Notes under the pieces: model-generated
Seen by the model: only the letters and a program-made list of their open reading frames with translations
What the model was told of the DNA's origin: nothing
The model's database searches: none
Position numbers and translations under genes: made by a program
In this document: one piece after another, positions 5,471 through 14,124 of the stretch
Numbering within the stretch: position 1 is the first letter of the stretch
Layout: each line of letters starts with the position of its first letter
NCBI GenBank assembly: GCA_030390025.1
Contig: CM059431.1
Location: forward strand, 129,644,001-129,708,000
Origin: Squalus acanthias
Lineage: Eukaryota
Reading direction: 5' to 3'
Length of the DNA: 64,000 nt

Positions 5471-6406
5471 ATTTCTTGAAGTCATATTGAATGGATAGAT
5501 GTATAAAGTTGGATTGGAAAGTTTGCTTTGTGGTGGCTTTTATTTCAGCATCGTGGCCAAGAGGACGCTGTGGTGGTCAGTTACAGAGGGAAGATAAGGT
5601 ATGGGACTAAAGTTGAAAGGGGAATTGGGGTTGTGGTCACTGGGACTGCAGGCGTATGATTCCAGCCCAGATATCCCGGCAAGAAAGGGGCTGTCTGGGT
5701 TGCATCCTTCCTTCTGCTTCCTCCTCTTCTGTTTCTTCCTCTTCTGTATCTTCCTCTTCCCTCTGCGAGAGGATGCTGTAAATCTGAAATTACAGCATAA
5801 AATGCTGGAAATACTCAACAGGTCAGGGAGCATCTTGACCTGAGATGTGGGCCAGAATTTTCCCGCTGCTCTGCGTGCAGGTTTGGAGGTGGGTCTGCAG
5901 TAAACGTTACATAAAAAGGTTGCGCGTTGGGAACCACCGTCATCCCACCTCCTCGCACTTTTAACTCAGGCGTGTTTGCCAGCACAGCATGGACCCGAAC
6001 AGCAGAGGCGGGCGACCTAATTAAGCTCATTAAAACCCTGTTGTCTGACCCTTAACAGTGTTTTTAACCAGACCTTTTGAATTTTACTGGATGACCACGG
6101 GAATCACGCAGCTCGGGAACCACGTCTGCCAACCTGAGGCAGAAGCTCAGTGGATCATTGTGCGAGGTCATTAATGCAGAGCATGGAAGTCCAAATAAAT
6201 ACTCCCACTTTACACCTCATTATTTGCCGAAGTGAAAGGCTCTTGCTGACTCCATTTTGAGCATAGATTTAGGTGTCTTGAGTTTGCAAGTCTTTTCTGC
6301 AACCTCGGAAGCCACTCTCACCTCATTGATACTAACTATCACAAGATTGACAGATTGCTTCTCTGAATTCTACTTGACCTGCCATCTATTACATCAGCAT
6401 GGGTGA

Positions 6407-6600
6407 TGTCGTAAGAATGAGCCTTACGCGTGGTAAACTTAAAATAAGCTTTAATCAACTAAAAAGGTGCTACATACAAAAGAGGTCTTACTCTATGCCT
6501 CTCCAGGATCCAACTGATCAGTCCAGTATTTATCCTGGACTAATCACAGGAAGTGATGCAATAAAGTTCGAGTCACAGGAAGCTGTATTGTGTTACCACA
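6407..6600 (-). repeat. Gypsy 3' LTR
   Basis: Direct repeat of 10618-10811; preceded on minus by the purine tract GGGGGGGGAGAA. Confidence 0.95.
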
Positions 6601-6687
6601 TTCTCCCCCCCCAAAAGATTAGGAGGCCGGGATGCTCCCTCCATTTCGTAGCCACTGGACGAGGGAGAGCCACACCCGTTTGGGTTC

Positions 6688-9600
6688 TCATAGCGGTAGA
6701 GGGCCCCTTGCCCGTTTACCCGCCGCGGGCCGTGGACCAGAGTCCGAGTGATCCAGCCCGCTCTGTGAGGGGTCAGGACGATCCTGACTGTGTACTGGTG
6801 CCCGAACGGGTGTCGGGCAGGGCTGTGGCAGATCCGTTTCCGAGCGTACGGTACAGGGTGGATCGTGGCTGCGCGTGCGAGCCCCGACGGGCTCATAGTC
6901 AGTCTGCCCCAGGTCGGCACGCTGGAGTGAGGTACCAGCCGGCGTCAGATCCAGATTGTGATGAGAGGCACCTGGCGAGCCCAGAGATGTGCCTGGTACA
7001 ATATCATCCCCTGGTGTCCCTCTATGTTTCGGCGGGCAGGGAGCCAGATCCCGCAATGACACGGTAGATTCCCGACCGTCAGGATACCGAATATAGGCGT
7101 AGGTAGGGTTGACGTCAGTGAGCTCAACCTCATCTACCAGGGGGTCATTCTTAGACGCCCGGACATATCTTCGGAGTAGGACTGGTCCCGGTGCAGTCAA
7201 CCACAACGGGAGAGATATCCCATAGTATGAGCGACGCTGAAATCGGAAGAACCGTTCATGAGGCGTCGTATTTGTGGCGGTCGAAAGGAGGGACCGTGTG
7301 GAGTGTAATGCGTCTGGAAGTACTGCTTCCCATTGCTGGTTGGGTAGGCCCCGAGATCTCAAAGCCAGACGTACCGCATTCCAGATGATAGCGTTAAAAC
7401 GCTCGACTTGCCCATTCCCGACCGGATGATAAGGCGTCGTTTTGCTGGCAGCAATACCCCGTTCCGAGAGATAGGCCTTGAGTTCTCCTGACATAAAAGA
7501 AGGGCCCCGATCCGAATGAACATAGGATGCCATGCCACAGAAAGCAAATACCTGCTCAAGGCAGCTGATAACCGTGGTCGTCAGCATATTGGGGCAGGGA
7601 AAGGCAAACGGAAAACGGGAATACTCATCGACCATGGTCAATAGATAAGTGTTGCGAGTTGAAGAGGGCAACGGCCCCTTAAAATTGATGCTAAGCCGTT
7701 GCATTGGCTGGGTCGCATGTATGAGTATACCCCCCGAGGGGCGGAAAAACCGAGGTTTCAATTCCGCACAGACTCTGCAGTCCGAGCACATCTTCTTTAC
7801 ATCCCCGGTAGAGAATGGGAGATTTCGGGACCGCACGAAGTGTAGCATGCGAGTAACGCCCGGATGACACAACCCATCATGGATGTCTACGAGCGTAGAG
7901 GGTGCCATGGCGGAGCAGAATGCTCGTGTGAGGGTATCCGGAGCCACATTCTCCTTGCCAGGTCGATAGTGGATGGTGTAACCAAAAGAGGCCAATTCCA
8001 GCCGCCAAAGCTGGATTTTATTATTTTTAATTTTGGTCCGTTTTCGATTATCGAGCATGAAGGCGACCGATCACTGGTCCGTGATTAAGGTAAAGTGCTG
8101 GCGAGCTAGGAGATGACTCCACTTCCGTACTGCCTCTATGATGGCTGTAGCTTCTTTCTCGACTGGAGGATAATGTAGCTCAGCCCCTTGAAAAGTCCTG
8201 GACAAAAATGCCACCGGACGACCTTCCTGATTCAGAGTGGCCGAGATCGCCACCTCCGAGGCATCACACTCAACAACAAAAGGAAGACTCTCATCGATGG
8301 AGTGAAGAGCCACTTTCTCCAACTGTTTTTTCAGGAGGTTAAAGGCTGCAACAGCTGCTGTGTCTAGTGGGAATGTGCTGGCCTTCAGTAGAGGTTGGAT
8401 TTGGTCCGAGAAGTTAGGAATCCGCAAGGAGGCCGGATTCTTAGGTGGCGGGAGTTCTTGGAGTGGGCGAAGCCTTTCAGGGTCAGGTTTAATGATGCCA
8501 TTGCCCACACAATAGCCAAGGATGTTGATGGTTGGTTGTGACTCAATGGATTTAGCCGCATTTAATGTCAAATTACAGTGCTGGAGTGCATCCCAAAATC
8601 GTTGGAGATTGGCGTCATGTTCCCGCTGATTGCGACCTGCGACAGTAATATTGTCCAGATAAGGAAACGTATCCTTCAAGTCTTCCTGTTTGACCAGGTC
8701 ATCCATTGCTCGCTGGAAGACAGCCACTCCATTAGTGACCCCAAAGGGGAGGCGACGAAATTGATACAGCCGTCCATTGGCTTCAAAGGCCGTATACTGC
8801 TTGTCTGAGACCTTCAAGGGTACCTGATGATAGGCACTTTTCAGATCATATGTTGAGAACACCGTATACTCAGCCAGTTTATTAACCATATCATCGATGC
8901 GCGGCAATGGGTATGCGTCCAAGTCCGTATATTGATTGATGGTCTGTGAATAGTCAATGCACAGCCGTTTCTTGTGAGGTTGTAGAGGGTTCTTAACAAT
9001 AACGACCTGGGCGCGCCATGGCGACGAACAAGGCTCGATGATATCCTCTGCTAAAAGCCGAGAAATCTCAGCCGCAATAAAAGACTGGTCTTCCTGACTG
9101 AAACGTCGTGACTTTGTTATAATCGGTTTGCATCGAGGAGGGATACTGGCAAACAGTGAGGGTTCATCCAGTGAAGCTGCTGACAATGCACAGAACGGTA
9201 ATCGAGGTCGTATATTAGAAATAGTGAGTTCAGGTTTGGATCCGCCGAACTCAATGGTGAGCTTCTTATGCTGCTTTTGAAAATCCAGCCCTAAGATAAG
9301 ATCACTACATAAGTCCTTGAGCACCGAAAGCCGGGTGGAGGGATACCTGTGACCGTGAAGTGTTATTTCAACCATACAAAAGCCAGAAATTCTGGTATTA
9401 AGTGATGACTGAGCCATCGCAACTGCCTGGTCCGATGGGAAAACATGTAGCTTTAACTCTGCAACAATCTGTTCCCTAATGAAACTATCAGTGCTACCTG
9501 AGTCAATTAAGGCATCTAAAGTATGTCCATTAATTGATGCTTTTGTAGCTGCATGGAATAGGTTCTGAGGACAAGCAGCTGTAATTGGTGTTGTTGCACA

Positions 9601-10539
9601 AAGAGTGGCTGAAACTCTAGGTGTGTTTCTTCGAGAGGAAACCCGAGAGGAAGCACGATAGATTTTAGCCGGAACATCTTGATAGGCCCTTACCGGGGCA
9701 GTTCGGTAGGACTTAGCTTGATAAGCCCTCGTAGAGGCTCTTGATAGGCAAACCTTTGCAAAATGACCCTTTTTGTTGCAATGACTGCAAAACACATTGC
9801 GAGCAGGGCAGAATCTCCGAGGGTGAAACTCATCACCACAAAAGAAGCATTTCTTAGATTGCCAAGAGGCTGCCACAGTGGGGTCATCATCCTCTTCATC
9901 AGTGAAGTCATCAGATTGATCGTCAGGGATAAAGTCCTCCCTAATAGAGTTCACCTGTGGCCTCTTAAATTGCCTGACTGTAGTTAAGGCAGTAGACCGA
10001 GGTCTGGGCACTGTATAAAGGTCTGCATTTCTTTTTGCCAGATCTAGAGAGCAAGCCATGTCATAAGCTCTCTGAAGCTCAAGTGTCTTACTTTCCAGTA
10101 GACGCTAGCGTATAAATGGGGAGGCAAGCCCGCAGATGAAAGCATCACGGATCATTTCTTCACGGTACAGCTCAGCTGAGGCCGCCTGAAAGTTACAGTC
10201 CATACTAAGTCTGCGAAGCTCTTGGAGGAATTTATCAATGGATTCCTCCGGCCCTTGTTGGGCTGTAGCTAGTAGATGTCTGGCATAGACCTCATTCGGT
10301 GTCTTAGTATATAGTCTCTTAAGCATCCGAATTGCTTCCTCGTAACTGTCCCATTCCTCCACATACTGAAATACATTCGGGGTGACACAGTTGATGAGTA
10401 TCCGCAACTTTGAGTCATCATCAGCCTTGCAATACTCAAGAAAATTGTCAAACGTGCGATACCAGTGTTTCCACACCTTACCGGCTGCTAGGGTGTTTGG
10501 GTCCAAGTCAAGACGCGATGGTTTAAGGATGTTTTCCAT
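6688..10539 (-). pseudogene. gag-pol: Gypsy gag-pol, single frame with in-frame stops
   Basis: ORFs 10105-10539, 8071-10059 and 6688-8058 are in one frame. CCHC knuckles, protease LIDSGS, RT (YLDN), RNase H (CDAS), HHCC and integrase core. Short in-frame deletion at PASLR/IPNF. Confidence 0.92.
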
Positions 10540-10617
10540 GATGGGTGATTCCCTGGATCCTTAGTTCCGAGTTCGTCCAAAAAGTTTGAGTGCGAAGTTT
10601 TCCAAAGTTGATTAAAT

Positions 10618-10811
10618 TGTGGTAAGAATGAGCCTTATGCGTGGTGAACTTAAAATAAGCTTTAATCAACTAAAAAGGTGCTACATACAAAAGAGGTCTT
10701 ACTCTATGCCTCTCCAGGATCCAACTGATCAGTCCAGTATTTATCCTGGACTAATCACAGGAAGTGATGCAATAAAGTTCGAGTCACAGGAAGCTGTATT
10801 GTGTTACCACA
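10618..10811 (-). repeat. Gypsy 5' LTR
   Basis: Direct repeat of 6407-6600, upstream of gag on minus. Confidence 0.95.
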
Positions 10812-12296
10812 GGTGACTTACCTTGGTCCTCAGAATCGGACCAGGATGAACCCCAACACCAGCAGCAGCAGGTACACTAGCAGCAGCAGCAACAACAACA
10901 GCAGCCTTCTCCTCAACGACCTGATGCTCCACAGGATAGAGGGCATCAGCGCAGGGCTGCACTGCACCGGAGGCGATACCCCCAACACATGGTATACAGG
11001 CAGAGGATGAGCTTCCTCAACATGACTGAGCAGCAGTGCCAAAGCAGGCTCAGGCTATCGCGCCAGGTCATCGCAGACATTTGCAGCTTGCTGGAGCAAG
11101 ACCTGCAGTCCAGAGGTCCTGGTGGACACACCTTACCTGTGGCTGTCAAAGCCCTCAACTTCTTTGCCTCAGGCTCCTTCTAGGAACCTGCAGCAGACAT
11201 TTGCGGCATCACGCAGTCGGCTGCCCACAGGTGCATCACACAGGTCACCGATGCCATATTTGACAACTCAGCCAATTATATCAACTTTGCCACTGATGAA
11301 GCCAGTGTTACTGAGCAGGCGATTGGCTTTGCCACATTGGCTGGCTTCCCACGGGTGCAGGGCATCATCGACGCACACATGTGGCCATCAGGGCACCCCC
11401 ACATCACCCAGGAGTGTTTGTGAACCGCAAGGGCTTCCACTTCCTCAATGTGCAGCTTGTCTGCAACCATAGGAAGATCATCATGCATATGTGCACCAGA
11501 TTCCCTGGCAGCTGTCATGACTCTTTCATCCTGCGCCAGTCCACCCTCCCTCAGCTCTTCGCACCGCCAAACACACTTACCGGCTGGCTGCTTGGAGACA
11601 AGGGCTATCCACTGAAGACGTGGCTCATGACATCCTTGAGGAGGCCAAGTACTGAGGCTGAGGAGTGGTATAATGAAAGCCACATGTCCACCGGATGTGT
11701 CATAGAGCAAACAATAGGCATGCTTAAGATGCACGTCAGATGCCTTGACAGATCTGGAGGAGCCCTTCAGTACACACCAGCCATGGTCTCCAGAATCATT
11801 GTCATCTGCTGCGCACTGCACAGCATAGCACAGCAACGAGGATTCGCACTGCATGAGGAACAAGGCGCAGAGCGCACAGCCTCTTCAGAGGAGGAGGAGG
11901 AGCAGGAGGAACCTGAGGTCCAGATGCCAGCAGCACTGGAGCACATTACTGCCCAGGAGGCCAGGGATGGCCTCATCATGGCCAGATTTACTTAACTTGC
12001 TGCATTACACCCATATGGCTGCCACATGCTGTGCCGGGTTCCCCCGCCCCACCAAAAAAACCACCATAAAGCATCCCTACAATGACCAAGCCATTCCTTT
12101 CACACTGACACCGATTGCTGGAGTTAACGTTATGTCTCACCATTTACTACAACTCACTAAGCCACTTCCAAAGTAGCATACAAGAATGGGCATGACCGAA
12201 AAGAGGTGAAAATAAATAGTTTTATATGTGTCATAACATTACCGGAACCTTAACAATAACACTTCTTTAAACACCCACGTGCTTACCTTTGTGCAT

Positions 12297-14124
12297 CTAC
12301 TTCTGTGCCATTTTTCGTTTACGCATGCTTCTATGAGGTGCAACCCCTGTGGCTTCAGCAGAGGTAGAGACAGCCTGCTCACTTCCCTGCTGCAACTGCA
12401 TAGACACTTTTGGCGGATGTCCTCTGTGTTCTGGAGCCTGTGATGACCCCGCCAAAGTCTGCTCCTCCTGCGACTGTGCAGGGGCAGACTTGGCCATCGC
12501 TATCCGAGGAGGCATCTGGGGCTCTGACTGAGGGGGGGGGGGGTAAATGTGGGGAGAAGTGTGGGCACTTTGAGAGGAGTCCCCACTTCCATGTCCCCTC
12601 TCACCATCATCCCTCTCACGGGTCACCTGTACTTCCCTGCTAGCAAGGAGCTGAAGAGCATCTTGCTGCACAGCAGTGGGGCCATGAGGATCCAAGTCTA
12701 TGTTTACATCCCTTCTAGAGAGGAGGTCTATGAGCCTCTGCCATCTGTTGTTCATAGATAGCATCTGCTCATTTGAGTGGCGCATTAGCTGCTCCATGCA
12801 GGTGGCCATCCGTTCCATGGAAGAGCATACCATCCCCATCGTCTGCGACATGGTGGTGGTCATGTTGGAGATGGACTCCTCCATTCTCTGCACATTTGCA
12901 GACATTGTGGCCACAAAACCTGTCAGAGCCTCCTGCACTTCTTCCTGCACCTCCAGGATCATCCTCTTTCTCGATGGCCCCCGAGGCTCAGCGTCTGCAT
13001 GCAGCTGAGTAGAGCTGGGAGCATCCTGCACCTTCCAGCGAGGAGTCTCCACTGCTGTCCTTGTCTCCACCATCTCCTCTTGCTCACTTGTGACTTGTGA
13101 GACACCAGGTGACAACACTACTCTATCTCGTGTAGGACCCACCTGAGGTGTACATATCTGCGCTGGTGCTGGGTGCGCTTAGGTCTGGTGATGGTGCACC
13201 CTCAGGGGCTGGAGGCTCCTCTGAGGAGTCATCTTCCTCCTCCGGCTGGACAGTGGCGGGGGCTCTTAATGGACCTGTCGGAGAGTAAAGAGATGATTTA
13301 GAAATGTTATATTAAGAATGGGTAACGATACCATGATGACCATTGAGTGACTGCTGTATGCCATGTGGCTGTATGAGATGTAATTCTGTCACCAGGTTGC
13401 TGAGAGGTCCCCCTCTTTCCGTCTCCCACTGCCAGCAGCTCTGCAACTCTTGACACCTCCAGGGCGACCTCCTCTGCTGCAGTCAAAGTGGCGAAGGATG
13501 AAGCGCCACCTCCGGTTCTCTCCCTCTCCCTGTTGTTGTGCGTTTGTTTCTCCTGCAAGGAGGAAAAGAAGAGAAGTTTGAGTGAGAGTGATGGTATGAG
13601 TGTAAAGGAATGTGTGGGTTACATCTGTAGAGGGCTACTATGAGGGATTGTGGTTCCAAGGCCAAAGTGCCAATGCCAAATGGCCTCCTTGTGTGGTATG
13701 ATTGCATTGGCATGAGGGTGAGTGTGAGGGGTGGGTAGTCAGAGGGGGATGTGAGTATGTATATAGAGAGGGATGGGTGAACGTGAAAGGTATGTTGGTG
13801 TGAGTAATGATGTGCAGGAGCAGGCTTGGGAAAGCAGAGTGATGGGGATGTGGTTACAAGCACAGCAGGATGAAGGTGAGTGTGGCTTTGTACTCACCTT
13901 TCCTGATCTCATGAGATAATTGAAGCGCTTCAGGTCCTCCTGACAACACCCCTGCTGTTCACCTCCTCTTCAATTTGGAGCCAGGCTCTTTTTGTCTCCT
14001 GGGGAGGGCTCTTCCGCCCATCAGCAGGGAAGAGGACCTCCCTGTGTGCTCTGACTCCCTCCAGAAGAATATGTAGGGAGTCATCTGAAAACCTGGGTGC
14101 AGTCTTCTCTCTTTGTGAAGCCAC
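12297..14124 (-). pseudogene. Harbinger Myb/SANT-like gene (H2); exons 14124-13898, 13552-13393, 13274-12297
   Basis: APRFSDDSLHILLEGV...KRAWLQI Myb domain, exon 2 HNNRERERTGGG, canonical GT-AG sites. Start codon is GTG and exon 1 has a lesion. Confidence 0.88.

Follow-up and report, generated by a model that had tools for sequence, protein, structure and literature searches.

Probable self-priming of reverse transcription in a Ty3/Gypsy lineage without a chromodomain

How reverse transcription is primed in an LTR retrotransposon whose primer-binding position lacks TGG is the question raised by one locus in the window, i.e. the whole 64,000-nt stretch of Squalus acanthias DNA analysed here. 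The answer favoured below is self-priming with the element's own RNA, as in Tf1, within a separate Gypsy lineage devoid of a chromodomain; based on sequence comparison and computation, this reading is considered very probable.

The element and its self-complementary pair

The locus is a full-length Ty3/Gypsy LTR retrotransposon of 4,405 nt on the minus strand, recognised by its TG...CA LTR pair, target-site duplication, polypurine tract and PR-RT-RH-IN order. The 5' LTR (10618..10811) and the 3' LTR (6407..6600) are each 194 nt long and show three differences. They are bordered by the 5-bp target-site duplication TCACC (10812..10816 on the 5' side, 6402..6406 on the 3' side), and a polypurine tract adjoins the 3' LTR (6601..6612). 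A single Gag-PR-RT-RH-IN frame (6688..10539, minus strand) contains the Pfam domains of the protease, RT, RNase H and integrase in Gypsy order. In this copy, two in-frame stops (10105-10107 and 8071-8073) interrupt the frame, the region between RT and RNase H is shorter than in homologs, and the RT active-site motif reads YLDN.

The element is inserted in or beside a decayed Harbinger-like transposon (10812-11995, plus strand, and 12297-13178, minus strand), of which a DDE_Tnp_4 frame (11315-11995) and an opposite-strand frame of 293 aa without Pfam match remain. Concerning the two-LTR loci described below, most families have AA as the last two bases of the polypurine tract, immediately followed by TG, a hint that the cDNA ends may carry extra bases.

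The preliminary description of this locus had claimed that a tRNA primer site is lacking and that the 11 nt in its place are the reverse complement of a segment of the element's own LTR, and both claims hold. The LTR end is followed by a one-base spacer (A, 10617) and then by the primer-binding position TTTAATCAACT (10606..10616, read 10616-10606 on the minus strand), which is exactly complementary to the LTR segment AGTTGATTAAA (10661..10671, read 10671-10661), the putative self-primer. This segment begins 54 nt before the LTR end and ends in an ATTAAA hexamer (10666-10661). The pairing extends over exactly 11 nt, its flanking bases being unpaired. After dinucleotide shuffling of the LTR, 11 nt of complementarity to a stretch that begins 0-5 nt past the LTR was obtained in 5 of 20,000 shuffles. 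A second copy of the segment and hexamer lies in the 3' LTR (6450-6460, minus strand), where the downstream pairing partner is absent. An Rfam search over 10500-10850 gave no match. As a site without TGG makes priming by a tRNA 3' end impossible, and as TGG is found neither here nor in any of the 21 LTR families described below, such a primer was ruled out.

Within the 3.7 Gb genome of S. acanthias, the exact 11-mer pair with a 30-55 nt gap has 3,192 copies, compared to 0 for a reversed control, and the junction between LTR and primer site occurs 3,413 times. A DNA search returned 893 candidates, and the best 30 of these 893, which were fetched, all retain both 11-mers. A protein search added two further families (L031, L032), and the identical 11-mer pair is common to at least three families with different LTRs (the window type, L031 and L032). 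Among LTR variants at two positions, 1 of 26 was compensated in the primer site, compared to a chance expectation of about 0.07 derived from 22 primer-site-only variants in some 3,200 copies; the compensated copy is changed in the 5' LTR only. In that respect, locus L159 carries a compensated change in the 5' LTR and the primer site that is missing from its 3' LTR, the two LTRs being 95% alike, and may be a recombinant.

Some copies have an unusual arrangement. Three junction copies at a spacing of 4,247 nt (C1:566513-575072) suggest a tandem array of the element, and several young copies of the L032 family (among L037, L034, L045, L046 and L051) lie within tandem repeats, one of them with a telomere-like flank.

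Relatives, covariation and phylogenetic position

A search with the RT-RNase H region gave 120 listed single-ORF polyproteins of 1,186-1,551 aa with 52-72% identity, from hosts including Palaemon, Trichuris, Actinostola, Narcine, Clavelina and Ischnura (shrimp, nematode, sea anemone, ray, tunicate and damselfly, respectively). The absence of a chromodomain, also claimed in the preliminary description, was borne out by the Pfam search of the window Gag-Pol pieces, where none was found, and by the 120 listed homologs, none of which possessed a Chromo or a Tf2-type SH3 domain. Among deep lineage members, 0 of 10 had a chromodomain, compared to 3 of 3 chromodomain-element controls. On the S. acanthias genome, the Chromo profile gave 16 matches and a DUF4939 search none, and control genomes were likewise without DUF4939 match. 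Two scans of viral contigs returned nothing, and one further scan only distant caulimovirus-like elements.

In 85 of the 115 homologs with a located RT motif (120 examined), N replaces the second D of the motif, though the family is young and abundant. A YVDN motif is present in Cer7-Cer12, where the text seen of PMC554778 calls its activity untested.

An alignment of 74 homologs used as query led to 67 metagenome loci and 10 MAG loci. The latter, ten contigs in bacterial MAGs (L137-L146), bear the eukaryote-type retrotransposon and most likely represent host DNA that was binned with them. Of 80 loci examined, 34 were testable, 42 having no Gag start and 4 being too short upstream. Ten or more contiguous pairs, with a primer site starting 2-3 nt after the terminal CA, were found in 30 of the 34 testable loci and in 20 of 21 LTR families, whose RT-RH identity to the window element ranges from 47% to 81%. 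Four loci did not satisfy this definition: L071 and L077, each with a single mismatch, L113, where the CA has been lost from beside an intact duplex, and L105, with 7 contiguous pairs. These observations concern the subclade down to L139, for which the duplex is known. Among 22 two-LTR loci, 16 had an LTR end, set independently by the LTR pair, that was at most 3 nt from the CA chosen for the scan, and two more of these have a 3' LTR cut off at the contig end.

For the covariation analysis, one representative per LTR family was picked after the duplexes had been seen; L097 was omitted in favour of L127, and L032 alone was taken from the 29 copies L032-L060. The 21 families carry 15 different 11-mers, and Watson-Crick pairs occupy 227 of 231 cells (positions +2 to +12). 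Permuted partners gave 170±6 Watson-Crick cells (maximum 201), and none of 100,000 permutations, which ignore kinship, reached 227. Chance as an origin of the match was thus ruled out by the LTR shuffles and these partner permutations. Both strands have changed at eight positions (+5 to +12), and when primer sites were combined with LTRs from families of a different 11-mer, none of the 396 combinations gave 11-nt pairing. Beyond the central helix, pairing was above permutation at +13/+14 (37 of 42 cells), weakly so at +15/+16 (24 of 42), and not further out. The paired LTR segment is 10-19 nt long and the loop 23-67 nt across families; a stop of the pairing at 10-19 nt is as expected if this is the primer length. 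At the level of single loci, both LTRs of L078, of a family otherwise resembling L082, carry a single-base substitution for which the primer site shows the complementary one. In L071, the two LTRs also share a change, but its primer site does not match it; this is compatible with a first-generation mutation and does not count as support. The conservation and covariation that the preliminary description had proposed to look for in relatives were accordingly observed.

As controls, elements of other lineages were inspected. The Mag-type element L136 of the same genome has a TGG site and only 4 self-pairs. In a similar scan, two of three chromodomain elements showed 9-10 self-pairs at CA+3, with loops of 85-94 nt.

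The RT-RH trees (68 rows under LG+G4 and 41 rows under a mixture model; 12 rows with short RT-RH cover and L140 were left out) placed the lineage on one side of a long branch at 100/100, with a separate chromodomain branch (100/98). In the integrase tree, from which three rows were dropped, the lineage also falls outside the chromodomain branch, and the Mag-type branch, with L136 and its homologs as reference rows, is likewise apart from it in both RT-RH and integrase trees. Identity between the lineage and chromodomain elements over RT-RH is 27-33%. Nesting of the lineage with six rows of the chromodomain-bearing fungal-type set was rejected (AU p = 0.011), and a sister position to the whole chromovirus branch was not (p = 0.36). 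By domain content and by these trees, in which Tf1/sushi-ichi is represented by chromodomain-bearing fungal-type stand-ins from viral contigs, the branch is long and the deep nodes lack resolution, the lineage is not a member of Tf1/sushi. The RT phylogeny called for in the preliminary description therefore places it outside the chromoviruses, and the suggestion of self-priming outside Tf1/sushi is supported by covariation, trees and domain content. Self-priming in this lineage would either have an independent origin or be older than the chromoviruses.

The helix, the proposed priming route and its alternatives

No G·U pair was found in the 231 cells of the central helix, compared to 11 of 67 pairs in the adjacent hairpin stems; L097, outside the family representatives, has one G·U in its duplex. 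A helix conserved for structure only should tolerate wobble, and its absence agrees with a primer site that is renewed from the primer at each cycle, as judged from sequence variation.

A small hairpin of the window element (10648..10660, minus strand) immediately follows the primer strand on its 3' side, where the cut would fall. Hairpins of at least 4 bp occur at this place in 14 of the 21 families, compared to a mean of 3.4 families and a maximum of 8 after shuffling. The predicted folds contain the central duplex and this hairpin, and helices joining the neighbourhood of the primer site to U5, of the Tf1 'pretzel' type, are inconsistent across families. In the window element, the predicted mean pair probability of the duplex is 0.93-0.95; for RNA starting at the segment, 20 of the 21 families reach at least 0.87, and adding up to 100 nt upstream altered the value little, with one value down to 0.69. 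The 92-nt region as a whole folded no better than shuffled sequences (z = -1.2).

Of the 21 families, 13 have A(A/T)TAAA at the end of the paired LTR strand, a 14th deviates from it by one base, and the remaining 7 have no canonical hexamer there. It is plausible that the duplex would mask a poly(A) signal in the 5' LTR, a modelled role that fits the conserved geometry. Concerning the transcription start, a T-rich run precedes the segment, which begins with a conserved A-G-T register, presumably akin to an initiator. The window family and L032 have a putative TATA-like motif 74 nt (10738..10745, minus strand) and 90 nt upstream of the segment, respectively, which would imply an earlier start; none of the 21 families has such a motif at -25 to -30 of the segment.

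Under self-priming, transcription would start at the segment or a few bases before it, by analogy with Tf1. The RNA would fold back over a loop of 23-67 nt, allowing the segment to pair with the site after the 5' LTR, and would be cut at the 3' end of the segment, after its terminal AAA, probably by the RNase H of the element, leaving a free 3'-OH. From there, RT would extend through U5 and then jump to the 3' end of the RNA. In the 3' LTR, the hexamer ending the segment would probably serve for polyadenylation, with an overlap of 10-30 nt remaining for the first jump, and it would be paired in the 5' LTR only. Plus-strand synthesis would recopy the primer, so that the primer site would stay an exact complement of the LTR.

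Exact complementarity and covariation would be accounted for equally well if an LTR-derived primer came in trans from the second packaged RNA or from an LTR transcript that is short or ended prematurely, without fold-back and cleavage, and the coincidence of the primer end with a poly(A)-type hexamer would suit such a transcript. However, the loop kept at 23-67 nt and the hairpin conserved at the primer 3' end fit a local fold, which is moreover predicted at high probability, and a primer in trans is considered improbable. The hexamer also bears on the idea that the duplex only hides the poly(A) signal of the 5' LTR, or regulates translation, with priming by something else. Its recurrence at the end of the paired strand in 13 families, and one base off in a 14th, agrees with such a role, as does the upstream TATA-like motif of vertebrate families, which would place the signal inside the transcript. 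Yet 7 of the 21 families lack the canonical hexamer there, the lineage would be left without a primer, and neither the constant start 2-3 nt past the LTR end nor the absence of G·U from a duplex whose neighbouring helix commonly has it would be explained, making this possibility slightly more doubtful still.

A 5' tRNA fragment ending in the D-loop was also weighed as primer, with the LTR match as a relic or decoy. The genome contains 42 matches to the D-arm motif, which we take to be that of tRNA-Ile, and the D-loop pairing covers this tRNA-Ile-like motif alone. One fetched copy pairs over 10-11 nt, including G·U, with 9 of 21 primer sites; at the window site, which is among them, the pairing energy is -10.6 kcal/mol, compared to -11.0 kcal/mol for the LTR segment. 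At the other 12 sites, however, the pairing is only 3-7 nt, and for 11 of them the LTR of the same element offers at least 10 nt. A copied primer should moreover leave an exact complement, which was found in 0 of 21 families, and ARAGORN did not call the two fetched copies tRNAs. This is the least probable of the three alternatives. With respect to the tRNA comparison proposed in the preliminary description, the exclusion of a 3'-end primer thus stands, with the qualification that nine sites show wobble-containing pairing with a tRNA-Ile-like D-loop. Self-priming remains the preferred reading.

Comparison with known systems

Self-priming is regarded as the hallmark of the Tf1/sushi chromoviruses; a single parallel, in plant Copia elements, has been predicted. 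A non-chromodomain animal Gypsy lineage with the same logic would mean that the mechanism arose again or predates the chromoviruses. As the sister position was not rejected, whether self-priming preceded tRNA priming becomes a testable question. A more detailed version, which we put forward tentatively and rate as possible but doubtful, is that tRNA-free priming evolved independently of Tf1/sushi in an old, long-branched Gypsy lineage of several animal phyla, present in thousands of copies in this vertebrate genome. The primer strand would end exactly on the poly(A) hexamer, a single helix thereby serving both to form the primer and to mask the signal of the 5' LTR. In the vertebrate families, the start may lie about 50-60 nt upstream, and the primer would then be an internal cut product and not a 5'-terminal 11-mer as in Tf1. 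From the known mechanism, such elements should escape silencing by 3' tRNA fragments. Annotation tools requiring a tRNA primer site would miss or mislabel them, and the duplex offers a simple diagnostic for the lineage.

In the literature searched, no report of self-priming in a non-chromodomain animal Gypsy lineage was found. Searches on MolGy, Saci-2/lennie, YLDN-type motifs and shark Gypsy elements yielded no name assignable to the lineage, and Atlas look-ups gave generic names. The portions seen of PMC6934838, PMC3601003, PMC3587641, PMC6238403, PMC12471100, PMC8556966, PMC8220671, PMC5006619, PMC10886601 and PMC554778 did not assign it either. The lineage may already be named, e.g. as MolGy or the LGF clade.

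The Mag lineage (L136 and K02A2.6-like proteins) resembles ours in its compact size (4-4.9 kb), single ORF, double zinc-knuckle Gag and lack of a chromodomain; the likeness extends to the 5-bp target duplications of our lineage, found in the window and in most two-LTR loci. L136, however, has a TGG site and no self-complement, and the trees separate both groups. The Saci2/lennie elements of flatworms are also animal Gypsy elements with a Gag-Pol fusion and primer sites that vary between families, according to the text seen of PMC12471100. Compared by description only, they differ by the 4-bp duplications (5 bp here) and tRNA primers reported in that text, and a supplementary primer-site figure of the same paper may bear on the comparison.

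Based on the parts seen of PMC6317226, self-priming has been predicted for the Tcn1 clade of Gypsy chromoviruses and for the plant Copia TAR clade, including Houba and Osr-1, from a complement of at least 10 nt starting 0-5 nt after the LTR. Our lineage bears the same predictive signature, which in TAR was thus already known outside Tf1/sushi (PMC6317226, same parts). Those elements are plant or fungal chromoviruses or Copia elements, whereas ours is a non-chromodomain Gypsy lineage with animal hits.

The proposed mechanism is modelled on Tf1. According to the text seen of PMC7175516, pairing at the Tf1 primer site involves the first 11 bases, and RNase H cleavage takes place behind base 11; copying of the Tf1 primer site into cDNA is stated in the part seen of PMC11042837, and self-priming is described for the Tf1/sushi group in those of PMC10085805 and PMC4600332. 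Like Tf1/Tf2, Tj1 and the Tf1/sushi group, as far as the seen parts of PMC7175516, PMC10085805 and PMC4600332 describe them, our lineage has no tRNA site, a 5'-LTR segment of about 11 nt complementary to the site after the LTR, and the Ty3/Gypsy domain order. Unlike Tf1/sushi, it has neither a chromodomain nor a Tf2-type SH3 domain, forms a separate long-stem clade and has an RT motif that is mostly YLDN. In contrast to Tf1, it possesses a hairpin at the primer 3' end and a poly(A)-type hexamer ending the primer strand, and the three-duplex 'pretzel' of Tf1 is not seen as a conserved fold among its predicted structures.
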